A stretch of 64,000 bases of DNA from Microgenomates group bacterium Gr01-1014_7 (lineage in GTDB: Bacteria; Patescibacteriota; Microgenomatia; Daviesbacterales; UBA10151). The notes beneath the pieces are model-generated. The model was not told the DNA's origin. It saw only the letters and a program-made list of their open reading frames with translations, and made no database searches. The stretch lies in contig VMGD01000003.1 in NCBI GenBank assembly GCA_007376405.1, forward strand, positions 336-64,335, in the 5' to 3' direction. How positions within the stretch are numbered: position 1 is the stretch's first letter; every line of letters starts with the position of its first letter. A program made the translations under genes and the position numbers. This document shows positions 136 through 10,006 of this stretch, piece after piece.

Positions 136-2310
136 TTGACCGAGAAACCAATGGAGAAAAATATGAGCTACCTATCTAATCACGGTATTTCCAAAGACCA
201 ACAACAAAAGTTTGGCATCATTGAAGACACTGATAAGGTCACATTTCCCTATAAAGACAAGGAGGGTAATTTCCTTTTCAATAAATATCGCCATCTTGAT
301 CAAAGATCCTTGGAAAATGGTAAAAAATTTAGCTTTAGTTCTGGATATAAACCTGTTCTATTTAATATTCAGGCATTAGATCAGGATTATGTTGTATATG
401 CAGAAGGAGAACCAGATGTTGTCAGATCAGATCAAGAAGGCATCCCTACTGTATCTGGAAGTACAGGGGCAGCTACTTTTAATAAAGATTGGGTACCAGA
501 TTTTATAGGCAAAAGAGTGTATATCTGCCTAGATAATGATGATACTGGTCGAGAGGGGGCTCGGAAAGTTGCAGAACTATTATTAAGAGGAAGTGTGGAA
601 GAAGTTTACCAGTTAACACTTCCAGAAGATTGCAAGGACATATGTGAGTTTTATAGTAAGGGTCACACAAAAGAAGAATTTCTCAATTTACTAGAAAACG
701 CCCAGAGGGCTAAGCTGGAAGATTTTAAAGATACCCAAAACCAAGATGACTCACTGGAAGATGAGTCTGGAGATAAAGAAGAGAATGAGTCCATCACGAA
801 ACAGGTAATTAAGTTAGTTTTAGAAAGCGGAGCTAAATTATTTCATGATCAATTCAATGATTCATATTTAGCTCCAACTGGAAATGGTCAGTTAGTTTTT
901 CGGTTAAAATCTAAACAGGCAAAAAGCTGGCTAAGTTATCTTACTTGGAAATATATTGGATTATCCTTAAGCTCACATCCCCTCAACTCAACAATTCTAA
1001 CCCTTGAGGCTATGGCTTGTTATGAAGGACCACAGATCTCGTTAGCTATTAGAGTAGCCAAAGAGGGAGAGATTATATGGTATGACTTAGGAGGTAAAAC
1101 AATTAAAATTACTTCTGAAGGCTGGGACATTGTCGAAGAATCACCCATCTTATTTAGGCGTTTCCCTCATCAAAAATACCAGATTGAGCCCAAGAGTGGT
1201 AATAAATTAGATGAATTATTAGATTTTATTAATTTAGAACGACAAGCTGATGGAAGGTTGAGCGACGAACAACTACTGACACTTTGTTGGTTAGTATTTG
1301 GTTTAGTACCAGGGCTGCCCCACCCAGCTCTAGTTCTATATGGTTCACAAGGGTCTAAAAAGACTACTCTACATAAGATTTTAAAAGAGCTTCTTGATCC
1401 ATCTTCAATAGAGGTTAATGGTAGCCAGAAAAATATAACTGAGTTTGTCCAAACAGTTTCCCACCACTGGTTTTTAGTCCTTGATAATATGACTTATCTA
1501 CCAGAGTGGCTTTCGGATGCCATGTGCAGGGTTATCAGTGGAGGCGGACTTTCTAAAAGAGAGTTGCATTCCGACGACGATGATATACTCTACAACTTCC
1601 GACATATTGTAGGCATAAATGGGATTAATTTAATGATCGAAAAGGCAGATCTCTATGAACGCTCCCTTATATTTGTACTCAAAAGAATTAAAAAGTTTAA
1701 AACAGAAAAATTGTTCTGGGCTCAGTTTGAAGAGAGAAAACCCTACATTTTAGGAGCGTTATTTGACACATTAGTTAAGACACTGCAAATAATCTCTACT
1801 ACTCCAGAACCAGAAGGGGAATTTAGAATGGCTGATTTTGCCCATTGGGGACCAACCATAGCTCAAGCTCTAGGTTATGAGGCAAATGATTTTCTGAAGG
1901 CATATAAAGCTAATATTTATAAACAAAACAAAGAAGCTCTTGAAGCTAGTCCAGTCGGATTAGCTGTAATAGACCTCATGTCTGACCAAGACCGCTGGAG
2001 CGGAACTCCCACTGAACTATTATCAGAATTAGATAAGATTGCCCTTAAGCTCCGCATAGACCAAGATCATAAATCATGGCCAAAAGATGCTAGGTGGGTA
2101 TGGCGACGTATTAGCGAGGTATTACCAAACCTTGAAGAGGAAGGTATTAAAGCTAGTAAGGGCAAGGATGACGCTAGGTTGATAATCCTTGAGAAGACCC
2201 TAACAAATGATGTCGGTAATGACAATGATGGCGGTCAGATTCCTAATAATCAGGTTCAATCGGACATTAAAGACAACAAAGGCGACATTTTTGGGGGAGG
2301 GGTGGATTAG
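136..2310 (+). CDS. Primase-helicase of a mobile element: N-terminal Toprim (DnaG-like) primase domain fused to a P-loop NTPase (D5/VirE-like)
   Basis: Toprim acidic motifs (YAEGEPDV, CLDNDDTGREGA); Walker A GSQGSKKT further downstream; this architecture is typical of phage/plasmid primase-helicases. Confidence 0.6.
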   Translation: MTEKPMEKNMSYLSNHGISKDQQQKFGIIEDTDKVTFPYKDKEGNFLFNKYRHLDQRSLENGKKFSFSSGYKPVLFNIQALDQDYVVYAEGEPDVVRSDQEGIPTVSGSTGAATFNKDWVPDFIGKRVYICLDNDDTGREGARKVAELLLRGSVEEVYQLTLPEDCKDICEFYSKGHTKEEFLNLLENAQRAKLEDFKDTQNQDDSLEDESGDKEENESITKQVIKLVLESGAKLFHDQFNDSYLAPTGNGQLVFRLKSKQAKSWLSYLTWKYIGLSLSSHPLNSTILTLEAMACYEGPQISLAIRVAKEGEIIWYDLGGKTIKITSEGWDIVEESPILFRRFPHQKYQIEPKSGNKLDELLDFINLERQADGRLSDEQLLTLCWLVFGLVPGLPHPALVLYGSQGSKKTTLHKILKELLDPSSIEVNGSQKNITEFVQTVSHHWFLVLDNMTYLPEWLSDAMCRVISGGGLSKRELHSDDDDILYNFRHIVGINGINLMIEKADLYERSLIFVLKRIKKFKTEKLFWAQFEERKPYILGALFDTLVKTLQIISTTPEPEGEFRMADFAHWGPTIAQALGYEANDFLKAYKANIYKQNKEALEASPVGLAVIDLMSDQDRWSGTPTELLSELDKIALKLRIDQDHKSWPKDARWVWRRISEVLPNLEEEGIKASKGKDDARLIILEKTLTNDVGNDNDGGQIPNNQVQSDIKDNKGDIFGGGVD

Positions 2311-2509
2311 AGCGATGATTAGTGCTGAGGCTGTTGAAGAGTTTAAAAGGCTATATTTCAGAGAGCATGGTATGAAACTTACCAATGAACAGGCAGTAGA
2401 CATGGGGAATAAACTTATTAGGCTAGTCAAGGTCGTTTTTGGCCCTAATCTACCTGAAGAATGGAAACCCCAGAAACTTGACTCTGTAGGGCCTAAAAAG
2501 GTACGATAA
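2207..2509 (+). CDS. Small hypothetical protein of the mobile element (true start probably internal, around 2316)
   Basis: ORF only; overlaps the primase 3' end. Confidence 0.2.
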   Translation: MMSVMTMMAVRFLIIRFNRTLKTTKATFLGEGWIRAMISAEAVEEFKRLYFREHGMKLTNEQAVDMGNKLIRLVKVVFGPNLPEEWKPQKLDSVGPKKVR

Positions 2510-2513
2510 TTCT

Positions 2514-4340
2514 ATGAATACTGCAGATTTTGTTCTAACCTATGGTGCCTATTCCAGAAGATCCTCTGAAGATTATGAGGATCGCCAAGTTGCTTCAATC
2601 GAAAGCCAGGAAAGAGAATTAAAGGAAGTTAAAGAAAGGTTAAACCTTAATGTTAAACAGCTTGTTTCAGAGTCGAGAAGTGCCCATACCATAGGACGTC
2701 CAGTATTTAATCAGCTTTTGGCTGACCTAGAAGATGGAGTAATAAATGCCATTTTAACCTACCACCCAAATCGTTTGTGCCGAAACGCATTTGACGCAGG
2801 AAGGCTGATTTATTTAATGGACGAGGGTAAACTCTTAGAGATTAGAACTCCATCACGAGTCTTTAAAAATACACCAGAAGATAAATTTATGCTTAATCTT
2901 GAGTTTGGGATTAGTAAAAAAGACAGTGACGACAAATCTGTGGTGGTCAAAAGAGGGCTTAGAAATAAGATAGAGCTAGGCTGGAGACCAGGTGTGGCTC
3001 CACATGGCTATCTGAATGATCGAGCTACAGAATCGGGCCACCGTAGAATATTAATTGACCCAGAAAGATTTGAGTTTATTAAACAAATATTTCAACTCAA
3101 ATATAAAGGTGTTCCAACTATGGAGATTCTTAGAATTGTCAATGAAGATTGGAAATTTAAAACTAGACCAAAAAAAAGATACCCTTCAGAACCACTTTCC
3201 TGCAGTAGTCTTTATAAGCTTTTAGGCAATCCTTTTTATTGTGGTAAATATTTTTATAGTGGGCAGTGGCATGAAGGAGCTCACGAGAAAGCTGTTGAAC
3301 CAGACATTTTTGACCAAATACAGATAATGTTAGGAGATAAAGGTTGCAGAAGACAACCAAAAACTCATGAATTTGCTTATACAGGAATGGTTAGATGTGG
3401 TGAATGCTCTGGTATGGTTACGGCTGAGGAGAAATGGCAAATAATTTGTTCAAAATGCAGGAATAAGTTTGCTCTGACAAGAAAAAACAGTTCTATATGT
3501 CCAGAATGTAATACTTTAATTGAAGAGATGGATCAACCAAGGATTTTGTACTACTCTTATTATCATTGCGGGAAAAAGATAAAACCCTGTTCTCAAAAAT
3601 CAATTGAAGTTACTGATCTTGAAGAACAAATCCAATTAATATTGGGTAGTATTGAGATTTCAGATTTTTTCTTATCTTGGGCTGTTGCAGAAATCCATAA
3701 GGATTTAGAGTCTGAAAAGGATTTTAGGGAGGATAAGGTTAAATCTGTACAAAGAGCTCATGAGGAATGCAGGTCTAAACTAGATAACCTGCTTAAGCTC
3801 AAAATTTCTCCTCTTAATTCTGATGGTAGTTTGATGAGTGATGAGAAGTTTAAGACCGAAAAACAGGCTCTAGAGACCGAATTAACAGGGTTGGAGAAAC
3901 AATTAAACGAAGTTGACAATAGGATGATACAAAAGGCTCAGGAAGCTGTGGATAAGTTTGATTTTGCTGCTAACGCCAAGGCTAGATTTGAAACTGATGA
4001 TCTGGCTGTTAAACGTGAGATACTTTCAACTCTTGGGTCGAACCTTACCTTAAAAGATAAAAAACTGGATTTACAGCCTCATCCAATACTCAACGCTATT
4101 AAAAAGATAAGGGAGGAAGAACCAAAAGTATCAAGAGGAGTAGAACCTTCAAATCAGCCTTTCACAAAAGCCCAAATGGATGCCTTTTACTCCTCAAATA
4201 TCACCGTGTTGCGGGGGCGGGAGTCGAACCCGCTGCCTCAAGATTATGCACTTAACTTGCATTACTGCAAGGGTAGGACTATATCATCACCCTGTACCGG
4301 ACGGTACGGGGCCCGGCGTGTAGTCTCTACGGGGTCCTAG
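2514..4340 (+). CDS. Large serine recombinase (phage-type integrase)
   Basis: N-terminal resolvase-type catalytic region (YSRRSSEDYEDRQVASIESQ); recombinase domain; Cys-rich zinc ribbon (CGECSG...CSKC...CPEC); C-terminal coiled-coil. The annotated 3' end reads through tRNA exon 2 and intron sequence on the opposite strand, so the true stop is uncertain. Confidence 0.7.
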   Translation: MNTADFVLTYGAYSRRSSEDYEDRQVASIESQERELKEVKERLNLNVKQLVSESRSAHTIGRPVFNQLLADLEDGVINAILTYHPNRLCRNAFDAGRLIYLMDEGKLLEIRTPSRVFKNTPEDKFMLNLEFGISKKDSDDKSVVVKRGLRNKIELGWRPGVAPHGYLNDRATESGHRRILIDPERFEFIKQIFQLKYKGVPTMEILRIVNEDWKFKTRPKKRYPSEPLSCSSLYKLLGNPFYCGKYFYSGQWHEGAHEKAVEPDIFDQIQIMLGDKGCRRQPKTHEFAYTGMVRCGECSGMVTAEEKWQIICSKCRNKFALTRKNSSICPECNTLIEEMDQPRILYYSYYHCGKKIKPCSQKSIEVTDLEEQIQLILGSIEISDFFLSWAVAEIHKDLESEKDFREDKVKSVQRAHEECRSKLDNLLKLKISPLNSDGSLMSDEKFKTEKQALETELTGLEKQLNEVDNRMIQKAQEAVDKFDFAANAKARFETDDLAVKREILSTLGSNLTLKDKKLDLQPHPILNAIKKIREEEPKVSRGVEPSNQPFTKAQMDAFYSSNITVLRGRESNPLPQDYALNLHYCKGRTISSPCTGRYGARRVVSTGS

Positions 4341-4469
4341 TGTTAATCGAAGGACTTCCCTCGGTATTACCCTAATAGGGTTTCACCGATATAGCCAAGT
4401 TCTCTCCGATAGTTACCCATCGGAGGGCCCATATTTGAGCCTTGTGTGCAGCCGTTACACTTCCCCGCG
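4209..4469 (-). tRNA. tRNA-Met(CAU), initiator type (C1.A72 mismatch, CGCGGGG...CCCCGCA-A like E. coli tRNAfMet), interrupted by a group I intron. Exon 1 is 4438..4469 and exon 2 is 4209..4248
   Basis: Minus strand reads CGCGGGG-AA-GTGT-AACGGCT-GCAC-A-CAAGG-CT|intron|CATAA-TCTTG-AGGCA-GCGGG-TTCGACT-CCCGC-CCCCGCA-A. Anticodon is CAT. T-arm is perfect. The 5' exon ends in U, as a group I splice site requires. Confidence 0.7.
4249..4437 (-). ncRNA. Group I self-splicing intron (about 189 nt, no ORF) inserted between nt 33 and 34 of the tRNA-Met anticodon loop
   Basis: Minus strand carries canonical R-like (GTAGAGACTACACG) and S-like (GATATAGTCC) core elements forming P7. An internal guide GGCC can pair with exon ...GGCU (P1, with U.G). 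The intron ends in G (omega-G) before the CAT anticodon. Confidence 0.75.
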
Positions 4470-4588: not shown

Positions 4589-5266
4589 ATGAAACGTAAA
4601 ATTGAAGAATACAAACGGGCATTAATATTAAGAGGAAAGGGTAAAAGTATTAAACAAATAGCAAGAATACTGGGAGTAAGCGTGAGTATTGTGAGCGTGT
4701 GGTGCAGGGGAGTAAGGCTTACTGACAAGCAAATAGAGAACTTAAAAAGAAGAAAAATAAGAATTAGACATTTAAGGAAATTGGCTAGACAAAGTCATTT
4801 GGAAAAAGTAAAAAGAGTACAAAAACTTTTTCAAATCGCCAAAGCTGAAGTTGGCCCTCTTTCTGATAGGGAAATCTTCTTAACAGGGCTTGCACTTTAT
4901 TGGGCAGAAGGCTTTAAAAGTTTAAAGGAAGCTAGATTAGGCTTCTGTAATTCTGATCCTGCTATGATAAAGTTTATAATTAGATGGCTCAAAAAAGGCT
5001 TAAAAGTAAAGCAGGAAGATTTCATTTTAAGGACTGAATTTAATCTTTCACATAAAGATAGAGAGGAAGAAATTAAAATTTATTGGTCCAAAATTACAGG
5101 CGTACCCTTAACTCAATTTGAAAAACCATTTTACCATCAATCAAACTGGTTAAGAGAATATCCTAGTAGGGATAATTATTTTGGAGTTTTAAGAATCAGG
5201 GTGCGTAAAAGCAGTGAATTATTAAATAAAATGAGGGGATGGATAAGCGGTTTAGCGGTAATTTAG
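4589..5266 (+). CDS. HTH domain fused to a single-motif LAGLIDADG-like homing-endonuclease domain (ORF track starts at 4556)
   Basis: N-terminal HTH (SIKQIARILGVSVSIVSVW); motif FLTGLALYWAEGF resembles the LAGLIDADG block (compare LIGYYLAEGS in the intein of this window); paralogous to 7362..8111. Confidence 0.5.
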   Translation: MKRKIEEYKRALILRGKGKSIKQIARILGVSVSIVSVWCRGVRLTDKQIENLKRRKIRIRHLRKLARQSHLEKVKRVQKLFQIAKAEVGPLSDREIFLTGLALYWAEGFKSLKEARLGFCNSDPAMIKFIIRWLKKGLKVKQEDFILRTEFNLSHKDREEEIKIYWSKITGVPLTQFEKPFYHQSNWLREYPSRDNYFGVLRIRVRKSSELLNKMRGWISGLAVI

Positions 5267-7325: not shown

Positions 7326-7355
7326 TTGACTTCCAAATAAAACCCGTAATATACT
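7326..7355 (+). promoter_or_regulatory. sigma70-like promoter (TTGACT, 17-18 bp spacer, TATACT)
   Basis: Read directly from the sequence. Confidence 0.35.
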
Positions 7356-7361
7356 GGAAGT

Positions 7362-7520
7362 ATGGCAAAATCTCTTTTAAGATTGGAAGCACATAAACTA
7401 CGTAAGAAGGGTATAAGTGTTAGAAAAATCGCCCAAACACTAGGTATTTCTAAAAGTACAATAAGTCATTGGACAAGGGATATTATCTTAACGGTAGAAC
7501 AGCTAGAGGCGCTTAGATAA
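7362..7520 (+). pseudogene. HTH module (52 aa) of the second HTH-LAGLIDADG paralog, ending at an in-frame TAA (7518-7520); the LAGLIDADG module continues in the same frame
   Basis: MAKSLLRLEAHKLRKKGISVRKIAQTLGISKSTISHWTRD... is homologous to the N-terminus of 4589..5266; 7362 and 7566 are in the same frame. Confidence 0.45.
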
Positions 7521-7565
7521 TCAACTATAAAAGGTGCAGAACTAGGTCGTTTAAAAGGGGCCTTA

Positions 7566-8111
7566 ATGCAGAAAAAGAGAAGATTAAGAATGGTTGAGGA
7601 GGCAAATAAAGCAGGAATCGATTTTTTATCTTCACTCACAGAACGAGAATTCTTAATAGCAGGTTTGGCGCTCTATTGGGGAGAGGGACACAAAAAGAGT
7701 CGTAATAGGGTTGGATTTTGTAATTCTGATCCTAAGATGATAAAATTCTTAATACTTTGGTTGGTTAAGTATTTAGGAGTAAAACTTGCCGATTTAAGAT
7801 GTAGAGTTGGAATTAATGTCATTCATACCAAAAGAGAACAAGTAGTAAGAGAATATTGGTCTAAGATAATTGGTATACCATTAAGCCAATTTAATAGTAC
7901 CAGCTTTAAAAAAGTTAATAACAAAAAGATTTATGAAAATTTTAATGAGCATTATGGAACTTTAGATATAGGTGTGGTGAAACCTACGCCTCTTTATTAT
8001 AGAATAATGGGTTTGATCGAGGGTTTAGCATGCCAGGGTAGCTCAGTGGGAGAGCACAGGATTCATATCCCTGCGGTCGCGAGTTCGATCCTCGCCCCTG
8101 GTACAAATTAA
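7566..8111 (+). CDS. LAGLIDADG-like module of the second paralog; no stop before the tRNA-Met gene, so the ORF reads through it to TAA at 8112
   Basis: LIAGLALYWGEGHK motif; colinear similarity to 4589..5266 up to ...GLA, after which the ORF continues across 8032..8103. Confidence 0.45.
   Translation: MQKKRRLRMVEEANKAGIDFLSSLTEREFLIAGLALYWGEGHKKSRNRVGFCNSDPKMIKFLILWLVKYLGVKLADLRCRVGINVIHTKREQVVREYWSKIIGIPLSQFNSTSFKKVNNKKIYENFNEHYGTLDIGVVKPTPLYYRIMGLIEGLACQGSSVGEHRIHIPAVASSILAPGTN
8032..8103 (+). tRNA. tRNA-Met/Ile2-type (anticodon CAU), intronless
   Basis: GCCAGGG-TA-GCTC-AGTGGGA-GAGC-A-CAGGA-TTCATAT-CCCTG-CGGTC-GCGAG-TTCGATC-CTCGC-CCCTGGT-A. Perfect T-arm and D-arm. G1.U72 and an A31.C39 mismatch make it slightly atypical. 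Confidence 0.6.
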
Positions 8112-8139
8112 GTTAAAAGTGTAAAGTTAAAAGTGAAAA

Positions 8140-9468: not shown

Positions 9469-9747
9469 ATGACTAGAATTAAGATTAACCAGTTGGTTTG
9501 GGATGAGTGGAATATTGAGCATATAAGAAAACATGATGTTACAAAAGATGAGGTTGAGGTAGTAGCTAAAAATATAGTAACTCATAAAAAAGCTAAAAAG
9601 GGGAGATATTTAATTATGGGAAGAGTAAGTTCAAGAATTTTGTCGGTAGCGATTAGTAGAAAAGGAATAGGAGTGTATTATCCGGTAATGGCAAGAGATT
9701 CAGCTAAAAAAGAAAGGAGAATAGTTTATGAAAAAGAAAAAATTTAA
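9469..9747 (+). CDS. brnT: BrnT-family (DUF497, RelE-fold) toxin
   Basis: VWDEWNIEHIRKHDV...RxISARDSAKKERRIVYE pattern; about 92 aa; followed by overlapping BrnA. Confidence 0.6.
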   Translation: MTRIKINQLVWDEWNIEHIRKHDVTKDEVEVVAKNIVTHKKAKKGRYLIMGRVSSRILSVAISRKGIGVYYPVMARDSAKKERRIVYEKEKI

Positions 9748-10006
9748 ATTCCCTGATTTTAATAAAATGACTTATGGAGAAGAAGCAAATTGGTGGGATA
9801 CCCATGATTGGGGAGAATTCTGGAATGAATTGGAAGATGTAGATATTGTGGTTGATCTTCATAAACCAAAAGAAGAAACTTTAATTTTAAGACTGCAAAA
9901 AAATTTAAAAGATAGGTTAACGGCAATTGCCCGCTCTAAAGGGTTAAATGTTTCAAGTTTAGCCAGAATGTGGTTAATGGAAAAACTGCAAGCCAGCAGA
10001 ACATAA
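9728..10006 (+). CDS. brnA: BrnA-family (CopG/RHH-type) antitoxin
   Basis: FKFPDF...EANWWDTHDWGEFWNE motif; C-terminal RHH (LRLQKNLKDRLTAIARSKGLNVSSLARMWLMEKL). Confidence 0.6.
   Translation: MKKKKFKFPDFNKMTYGEEANWWDTHDWGEFWNELEDVDIVVDLHKPKEETLILRLQKNLKDRLTAIARSKGLNVSSLARMWLMEKLQASRT

Follow-up and report, generated by a model that had tools for sequence, protein, structure and literature searches.

A gene interrupted by an in-frame stop codon was examined on a 64,000-nt stretch of contig VMGD01000003.1 (the window) from Microgenomates group bacterium Gr01-1014_7, together with the protein family to which the gene belongs. The gene stands directly against the 5' end of a tRNA-Met gene, and its reading frame continues into that tRNA. 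The features at this point of the window were as follows:

7362-7517 (+): helix-turn-helix (HTH) module, codons 1-52 of an ancestral gene of ~223 codons (Pfam HTH_23, 1.2e-8; HTH_38, 1.4e-7)
7518-7520 (+): in-frame TAA at codon 53, a nonsense mutation as read from the sequence, the same in three assemblies
7521-8030 (+): remainder of the gene, a helical linker and a conserved alpha/beta C-terminal domain (C-domain) of ~135 residues, whose fold is without assignment
8031-8111 (+): tail of the run-on open reading frame (ORF), 26 codons (CQGSSVGEHRIHIPAVASSILAPGTN) supplied by the tRNA gene itself, with the stop TAA at 8109-8111
8032-8103 (+): elongator-type tRNA(CAU) gene, called as tRNA-Met by ARAGORN (Rfam tRNA, 61.5 bits)

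The ORF 7362-7520 encodes 52 residues with a strong HTH match, and residues 1-52 of all full-length homologues align to this piece. The first ATG beyond the TAA, at 7566, is in the same frame as the HTH ORF, and there are no in-frame stops between 7521 and the tRNA. Similarity to relatives ends at ...GLA (8030), 1 nt short of the tRNA +1, and the stop of the ORF sits 78 nt into and past the tRNA. A preliminary description of the locus had read it as an HTH ORF, an in-frame TAA, and a continuation in the same frame, all of which was borne out by the sequence, the ORF reading and the Pfam matches to the HTH piece. Its coordinates for the split ORF and the tRNA also stand, except that the final TAA lies at 8109-8111 and not at 8112.

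As judged from the DNA, the TAA is a recent C>T nonsense mutation (CAA to TAA), premature by comparison with intact orthologues, and not a recoding signal. The closest relative (L003/P0001, 80% nucleotide identity) reads CTT AGA CAA TCC where the window reads CTT AGA TAA TCA, and the residue at codon 53 is Q, K, N, S, G, A or E in the family. When the stop was masked, 390 homologues came up in a protein search; the best were 60-81% identical, 225-260 residues long and unbroken at the stop column. Loci were collected from GTDB species representatives (78) and metagenome contigs (80), with further look-ups, and 164 with the C-terminus covered were surveyed for the position of the stop; 152 of these were intact, and no other locus had a stop at codon 53. 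The ratio of nonsynonymous to synonymous substitution rates (dN/dS) against L003 was 0.115 overall, and the gene had thus been kept by purifying selection up to a very recent time. Derived substitutions in the window copy and P0001 numbered 6 and 9 in the N-terminal part, and 7 and 9 in the C-terminal part, so that there was no excess in the window lineage; faster decay of the window copy was not detected by these counts. Since the TAA is also the only lesion, the event is recent. Other members of the family were broken as well, by stops at codons 7, 28 and 49 and by a frameshift at about codon 64, and two further copies were degenerate, one by an internal deletion leaving 5+52 codons and one with several lesions, giving seven degenerate copies among ~165 loci. 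Because the lesions fall at differing codons, they mark neither a conserved recoding site nor a conserved split point. An exact-pattern scan of JGI metagenome contigs for strain variants at the TAA gave no match.

The preliminary description had left open whether the TAA marks a recent pseudogene, stop-codon read-through, or a deliberately split arrangement of two proteins. The CAA codon of L003 and about 150 continuous homologues speak for the first. Programmed read-through or recoding, which would yield the full-length protein, is scarcely credible, for although the frame is otherwise fully open and conserved on both sides of the TAA, the stop is conserved in none of those homologues, and ARAGORN found no suppressor tRNA in the window. 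Moreover, TAA is the commonest genuine terminator of the window, whose long ORFs end in TAA (20), TAG (13) and TGA (12; n = 45); since all three serve as terminators, the genetic code is standard. The stop stands in the context TAA-T, which is an efficient terminator context. We attach just as little weight to an error of sequencing or assembly hiding a gene that is intact in the organism. The codon is one base from a sense codon, and the three assemblies that carry it, namely the NCBI contig of the metagenome-assembled genome, an ENA assembly (L001) and the Logan assembly of SRR8863434 (L002), may derive from the same or overlapping read sets; however, they were made by different pipelines and are 100% identical across 6.4 kb, TAA included, and substitution errors are rare in Illumina consensus sequences. 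A functional split, in which the 52-residue HTH peptide and a 181-residue C-terminal protein starting at ATG 7566 serve as two subunits, or only the C-domain is needed, is very unlikely. The best sign of it is that the five point lesions (codons 7, 28, 49, 53 and ~64) all lie in codons 1-65 while the C-domain stays open, and apart from this clustering in the N-terminal third no positive support for a split arrangement emerged from the survey. In L083 the in-frame TAG at codon 49 is followed 15 nt later by an ATG, in the window AAGGGG stands 6-11 nt before ATG 7566, and the window copy and P0001 share 89% identity over the C-domain. On the other hand, the lesions differ in kind as well as in codon, and two of the five came from protein clusters that are C-terminal only, which biased the sample towards N-terminal lesions, while four other 'C-terminal-only' proteins turned out to be internal starts chosen by gene callers in continuous ORFs. 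The 181-residue product would be without conserved residues 54-68 and would end in a tRNA-encoded tail of 26 residues, and the closest relative is unsplit. Natural isoforms without the HTH module were also considered, as representatives starting at profile position 55-56; of six that were checked, four were such internal starts and two carried genuine lesions. In L082, L084, L085 and L087, the public calls of intact genes begin at an internal Met near codon 55, and starts of this kind place spurious 'HTH-less' proteins of ~170-200 residues in protein databases.

A gene set against the 5' end of a tRNA, with its stop taken from the tRNA, is the normal layout of the family. At 143 of the 164 surveyed loci, a tRNA on the same strand had its start at -30 to +150 nt relative to where the conserved core ends, and in 142 of these 143 it was a tRNA-Met(CAT). 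The position of the stop at these loci was distributed as follows:

61 of 143 loci: TAG at tRNA positions 8-10 (the universal U8-A9-G10)
38 of 143 loci: elsewhere inside the tRNA, for example in the D-loop (TAG at 19-23) or the anticodon loop (TAA at 35-38)
5 of 143 loci: past the 3' end of the tRNA
1 of 143 loci: straddling the tRNA +1
38 of 143 loci: ahead of the tRNA

The stop therefore lay inside or beyond the tRNA at 104 of the 143 loci, and the common protein tail, ...NMPG*, is ATG CCN GGN TAG read off the acceptor stem. An open frame of at least 100 codons reached the tRNA +1 at 93 of 129 family-adjacent tRNAs, compared with 6 of 113 other tRNAs of the same loci; the overlap of ORF and tRNA is far beyond chance. 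It was thus correct that the window ORF has no stop of its own and runs into the tRNA, and the same is general for the family. In the window class of junction, a single nucleotide separates the core (...GLA) from the tRNA +1, and the frame, which is +1 relative to T8-A9-G10, reads GGT AGC across the tRNA TAG. The nearest relatives of this class end at the D-loop TAG, tRNA positions 19-23 (...QGSSVG*). The D-loop of the window tRNA is shorter (AGTGGGAGAGC) and without an in-frame stop, and for this reason the window frame crosses all 72 nt of the tRNA to the TAA at 8109-8111. Run-through of the whole tRNA was also seen in four otherwise intact relatives. Distant members of the family (Streptomyces, Solirubrobacterales) lie 11-51 nt upstream of tRNA-Gln or tRNA-Pro.

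Two further observations concern the tRNAs of these loci. The downstream tRNA-Met of L007, L009, L011, L105, L119 and L120 has an unusual D-arm (GGCAGGGAGTGGACTGGTGTCCC...); some tRNAs of this kind were missed by ARAGORN, although their sequence can be recognised in the ORF tails (...EAGSGLVSRGVS). Many genomes have a tRNA-Ile(UAU) only a few kb away from the locus (L006, L008, L009, L017, L018, L021, L024, L025 and others), which suggests that AUA is read by the UAU anticodon and that the CAU tRNAs here are Met tRNAs and not lysidine-modified Ile tRNAs.

Two promoter-like sequences accompany the split gene:

7326-7355 (+): promoter-like TTGACT-18-TATACT before the gene (10 of 12 consensus matches)
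7977-8005 (+): promoter-like GTGAAA-17-TAGAAT in the 3' end of the ORF (9 of 12 matches), its -10 ending 27 nt before the tRNA +1

The -10 box TATACT of the first ends 6 nt before ATG 7362, with no Shine-Dalgarno sequence present, and the TTGAC box is kept in the closest relatives, L003 and L093. This layout, common to L003 and L093, suggests a leaderless mRNA in the subclade. In other subclades the -10 lies ~30 nt upstream and is accompanied by a conserved AGGTTC and by an AGTACT palindrome, a candidate operator. The second sequence is a possible promoter of the tRNA itself. Of 57 short-gap relatives, 34 had a -10-like motif at -27 to -34, where it coincides with the conserved codons Y-Y/G-K/R-I, and the enrichment of TAT and AAA codons at the embedded motif was modest (89% vs 76%, 84% vs 77%). 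A number of loci whose ORF stops before the tRNA carry an extended -10, TGnTAnAAT, 9-13 nt before the tRNA +1. The tRNA is probably not dependent solely on the promoter of the gene. A terminator-like hairpin at 7970-7991 was within chance expectation, and no terminator separates gene and tRNA, because the two overlap.

The preliminary description had also proposed that processing of the tRNA by RNase P turns the mRNA into a non-stop message, coupling expression of the gene to tRNA maturation. Its structural premise, that the frame has no stop from the coding region up to the RNase P site, is confirmed in the window and generalises to the family, at the 104 loci counted above; the coupling itself would be feasible in structural terms. 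With the stop inside or beyond the tRNA, an RNase P cut at the tRNA +1 would leave the upstream mRNA stop-less. A ribosome terminating at the TAG of positions 8-10 would need to unwind the acceptor stem, so that translation of the last codons and maturation of the tRNA would be mutually exclusive on any one transcript. Even where the tRNA has a promoter of its own, read-through transcripts from the gene would still be cut by RNase P. An ordinary stop upstream of the tRNA in orthologues, which had been held to tell against the proposal, was found at 38 of the 143 loci, against the 104 that agree with its structural premise. ARAGORN found no tmRNA gene in the window.

A second member of the family lies upstream in the window, next to an initiator tRNA:

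4209-4469 (-): initiator-type tRNA(CAU) gene with a C1xA72 mismatch, split in the anticodon loop after U33
4249-4437 (-): ORF-less group I intron of 189 nt (Rfam Intron_gpI, 73.7 bits, E 8e-17)
4589-5266 (+): intact second family member, 225 residues, divergent from the split initiator tRNA and 119 nt from its 5' end

The preliminary description had called the gene at 4589 a continuous paralog of the split one. It is indeed continuous and intact, but with a protein identity of 35-40% to the split gene it is no recent duplicate of it, and it is 67-75% identical to the genes in the same position in L062, L067 and L069. The usual locus in Patescibacteria runs from an initiator tRNA, often intron-bearing, across ~60-120 nt to the family gene and on to an elongator tRNA-Met. 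The window holds both halves of this arrangement, with two inserted genes (RibD_C-like and Nramp) between them, and one family member guards each tRNA. At most loci an initiator-type tRNA(CAU), with an N1xA72 mismatch and the 3' end ...CCCCGCAAC, was found 56-142 nt upstream of the gene start. It was intronless at ~37 loci (ARAGORN), mostly 57-142 nt from the gene start. It was split (250-310 nt) at at least 43 tRNA-adjacent loci and at all 12 resolved loci of the paralog type; at dozens of loci the split tRNA lay 56-125 nt upstream of the family gene. The group I intron was confirmed by Rfam in 11 of the 18 loci tested. A group I intron that lacks an ORF thus adjoins a family gene, as in collaborative homing, but the gene is not confined to loci with the intron, since 23-37 loci have an intronless initiator tRNA with the same CUCAUAA loop.

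The split initiator tRNA of the window was missed by ARAGORN, and its exons were read from the sequence. In many Microgenomates the initiator tRNA contains a group I intron and escapes standard tRNA finders. Dozens of Microgenomates loci show this arrangement, and by standard tRNA scans their genomes would seem to be without tRNA-fMet. In L003, an 82-residue GIY-YIG ORF (1439-1687) lies between the intron-containing initiator tRNA and the family gene; the equivalent interval of the window contains the copy at 4589, the RibD_C gene and the Nramp gene. On the other side of the initiator tRNA of the window, a large serine recombinase ORF (Resolvase and Recombinase domains; 2514-4340, +) stays open up to the tRNA 3' end and beyond, reading ~130 nt antisense into tRNA and intron. 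In L060, a 50%-identical recombinase homologue (2116-3600) ends exactly at the 3' end of the split initiator tRNA. These junctions suggest that an element has integrated here, with the tRNA-fMet 3' end serving as its attachment site. Further along the window, at 9469-10006, two overlapping ORFs of 92 residues, the second with a CopG-antitoxin-type domain by the public annotation of the same contig, are probably a small toxin-antitoxin pair.

Comparison of the window with related genomes revealed filled and empty versions of the site. L069, L062 and L067 have the window neighbourhood: besides the copy at the split initiator tRNA, they share Nramp (up to 81%) and the NTP-transferase that follows the tRNA-Met (65-71% amino acid identity to that of the window). 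However, what lies before their tRNA-Met is a short spacer containing an extended -10 (TGGTACAAT or TGATAAAAT), and no family gene stands in front of it. The filled/empty pairs are the window and L069, and L003 and L062/L067, the tRNA-Met of L003 being 96-97% identical to the empty-site tRNA-Met of L062 and L067. In the alignments, similarity starts within 1-3 nt of the tRNA +1, which means that the gene and its promoter fill, in some genomes only, the space of the tRNA's own promoter. Presence and absence at one precise site among relatives, and decay through nonsense, frameshift and deletion derivatives, are both characteristic of free-standing homing endonuclease genes (HEGs).

Divergence between the window gene (7362-8030) and that of L003 (1876-2544) is mosaic. 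Over the HTH module and linker (7362-7600) identity is 63-72% (third positions 35-55%), compared with 77-93% (third positions 60-85%) over 7600-8030, a pattern that would fit intragenic recombination or partial gene conversion, with a putative breakpoint near 7600. Co-conversion of the tRNA gene was considered and set aside: the tRNA-Met of L003 is host-type, that of the window is closest (87-88%) to family-adjacent tRNAs elsewhere, and tRNA-Met is too variable to decide. The window itself carries two divergent family copies in one genome.

The family is not restricted to Patescibacteria. The Streptomyces branch comprises 3,536 proteins annotated as 'hypothetical' or 'HTH domain', 285-290 residues long and 80-85% identical across species, at a fixed locus (L168-L172, L076) in the order histidine kinase, family gene, tRNA-Gln 12-51 nt downstream, glmU, prs and rplY. 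A gene-tRNA-glmU operon common to the window and Streptomyces was rejected, because the NTP-transferase is downstream in only 3 of 140 Patescibacteria loci, and the likeness is treated as a coincidence. The downstream gene is conserved between the window, L093 and L030. When 1.84 billion cluster representatives (50% identity clusters) were searched with a family profile, the number of matching clusters was 5,861 at E<=1e-3, of which 3,237 reached E<=1e-10.

Members of the family consist of an N-terminal HTH module, a helical linker and the C-domain of ~135 residues, with the motifs GLALYWGEG, FCNSDP, GINxIH and NFNEHYGT and the invariant residues E, K, D, N, H and R. These residues are compatible with an enzyme but are no proof of one. 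The preliminary description had labelled the C-domain as LAGLIDADG, and this label failed every comparison made. The C-domain matched nothing in Pfam at E<=1, whether that of the window copy or those of 35 members of the family, nor in NCBIfam, PHROGs or PADLOC, and a search of the family profile against all PDB sequences at E<=10 returned no LAGLIDADG chain. AlphaFold gave a predicted local distance difference test score (pLDDT) of 85 for the full-length protein, and for the C-domain a pLDDT of 89 and a predicted template modelling (TM) score of 0.81. The modelled C-domain has the order helix-strand-helix-strand-helix-strand-strand-helix, a topology (a-b-a-b-a-b-b-a) that differs from the alpha-beta-beta-alpha-beta-beta-alpha core of the LAGLIDADG fold. 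Foldseek against PDB and BFVD found weak OmpA-like and IspF-like matches only (E>=5.7e-3, TM<=0.45), with no LAGLIDADG structure in the top 50. In an hhalign comparison with I-CreI, an 18-column helix, EREFLIAGLALYWGEG, was paired with NKEFLLYLAGFVDGDG at a probability of 0.12% (E 0.47); within this match of 18 columns and 0.12% probability, GLALYWGEG and its invariant E align to LAGFVDGDG of I-CreI. The likeness to LAGLIDADG proteins is, on the residues compared, at the level of a motif only. A role as a TnsD-like target selector was dismissed, since the weak Pfam TnsD matches (19 of 35 members) covered the HTH module and linker only, were below cut-off and reflect HTH similarity. An origin in phages was also rejected, as a tblastn search of 50,697 phage records gave no match.

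We narrowly favour the explanation that the split gene was broken recently and is decaying, and that it belongs to a large, uncharacterised family of homing-endonuclease-like genes resident at the flanks of tRNAs; for the reading of the family as a selfish element, the chances are about even. A single C>T change at codon 53, which is CAA in the nearest relative, broke the window copy. In the usual locus the gene has no 3' spacer, its frame entering the tRNA and ending at whichever stop the tRNA offers, most often U8-A9-G10. The family would represent a free-standing, homing-type selfish gene that occupies the site just 5' of a conserved tRNA gene, its insertion displacing the native promoter of the tRNA. 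An active gene would persist under purifying selection and later decay by nonsense mutation, frameshift and deletion, and the window copy would be at the first step of this decay. The tRNA may be expressed by read-through from the gene promoter, from the embedded -10-like element, or from both, and RNase P cleavage at the tRNA +1 would strip the stop from the full-length mRNA and so keep protein output low. In favour of mobility are the filled and empty sites, the decayed copies, the presence of two divergent copies in one genome, the association with a mobile intron, the GIY-YIG ORF of L003, and the mosaic divergence.

Several observations weigh against this explanation. No nuclease fold or motif was found in the C-domain, so that the term 'homing endonuclease' rests on architecture and population behaviour, and the Foldseek search gave no significant relative (best E 5.7e-3, TM <=0.45). 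About 95% of copies are intact and about 60-81% identical across candidate phyla, and the Streptomyces gene, at its fixed chromosomal locus and with 80-85% identity in many species, fits a host gene. The loci with an intronless initiator tRNA (at least 23-37) mean that the protein is not simply an endonuclease cutting intronless tRNA-fMet. The contrast of filled and empty sites could be one of loss rather than gain, and the confinement of all five point lesions of tRNA-adjacent copies to the first 65 codons could indicate that a C-terminal product is still useful. Strict coupling to tRNA processing is opposed by the 38 of 143 loci with an ordinary stop before the tRNA, a number of them with the extended -10 TGnTAnAAT, and by the promoter-like GTGAAA-17-TAGAAT that lies 27 nt before the tRNA of the window. 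A competing view is that the family is a resident, vertically inherited host gene, perhaps an HTH regulator of the divergent promoter region of initiator tRNA and gene, and of the downstream tRNA, whose window copy is redundant and being lost. We regard this as rather unlikely. It would accommodate the high proportion of intact copies across many candidate phyla, the low dN/dS, the fixed spacing of ~60-120 nt to the initiator tRNA, the conserved position of the Streptomyces orthologues upstream of tRNA-Gln, glmU and prs, the downstream gene kept in the window, L093 and L030, and the lack of a known nuclease fold in the Foldseek search. What stands in its way are the empty sites in close relatives, with a breakpoint exactly at the tRNA +1, the degenerate and deleted copies, and a partner tRNA that varies by branch (Met, Gln or Pro, with Glu, Ile and Val nearby), as well as the mobile group I intron found in association with the gene and the GIY-YIG ORF beside it in L003. 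The invariant E, K, D, N, H and R also suggest catalysis rather than a dimerisation module.

Returning to the favoured reading of a decaying, homing-type gene, the TAA alone is an ordinary fresh nonsense mutation, and it is the broken gene that is the interesting part. Genes of this family are welded to the 5' ends of tRNAs across two distant bacterial groups, with U8-A9-G10 routinely used as a stop. If the proteins are nucleases, they would represent a new class of homing-type element that targets tRNA promoters, and a natural example of a single transcript whose tRNA cannot be processed without loss of mRNA integrity; if they are regulators, they would form a conserved, unrecognised control element of the initiator and elongator tRNA-Met genes of Patescibacteria. 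In its boldest form, which we consider unlikely, the proposal is that the HTH + C-domain proteins are a new family of site-specific endonucleases homing to the junction 5' of tRNA genes (tRNA-Met in Patescibacteria, tRNA-Gln and tRNA-Pro in Actinobacteria), that insertion replaces the tRNA promoter and makes an essential tRNA dependent on the element, and that RNase P makes the mRNA of the element non-stop, its output then being throttled by tmRNA-type rescue. No description of the family or of the locus was found in the searchable full-text literature, and the fusion of gene to tRNA with a borrowed stop, in hundreds of bacteria, looks undescribed.

Among known systems, the closest parallels are mobile genes lodged near tRNAs. 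SegB of phage T4 is a free-standing HEG in a tRNA cluster. Like free-standing HEGs, members of the present family are small genes in which a DNA-binding module is tethered to a putative catalytic module, they are lodged beside highly conserved tRNA genes, they are present or absent in related genomes, and decayed copies occur. They differ in that their C-domain matched none of the six known HEG families in the tests run, and in that the ORF overlaps the tRNA and borrows its stop, an endonuclease role being putative here. Unlike elements of the SegB type, their hosts are cellular genomes, with no phage homologue among the phage records searched. Intronless homing is described in PMC3984707, which is also the source of the concept of a collaborative homing pair, a free-standing endonuclease acting with a group I intron that has no ORF. 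The window resembles such a pair in that the tRNA gene with its ORF-less intron lies 119 nt from the copy at 4589, but many family loci have an intronless initiator tRNA, and the split copy of the window adjoins an intron-free elongator tRNA. A group I intron in the anticodon loop of an initiator tRNA is a known system, cited in PMC3984707 as reference B105. The host gene and the class of intron position, the initiator-tRNA anticodon loop, are the same, and the window differs in that its intron is ORF-less and the candidate protein is encoded outside it.

With respect to protein structure, no sequence similarity or significant Foldseek similarity to PDB chains was detected for the family. I-CreI is a LAGLIDADG homing endonuclease and WhiA a domesticated protein that combines LAGLIDADG and HTH domains. 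The family may resemble them in that the helix EREFLIAGLALYWGEG, with its invariant Glu, aligns to the LAGLIDADG helix and is combined with an HTH domain; it is unlike them in the 0.12% probability of this match over 18 columns and in the a-b-a-b-a-b-b-a topology of the model, where theirs is a-b-b-a-b-b-a. For the overlap with the tRNA, the nearest counterpart is the tRNA punctuation of animal mitochondria, in which polyadenylation completes the stop codon. In both cases a coding frame reaches up to, or into, the 5' end of a tRNA, and excision of the tRNA sets, or would set, the 3' end of the mRNA. In the loci described here, however, excision would take the stop away, and the bacterium would be left with a non-stop mRNA.

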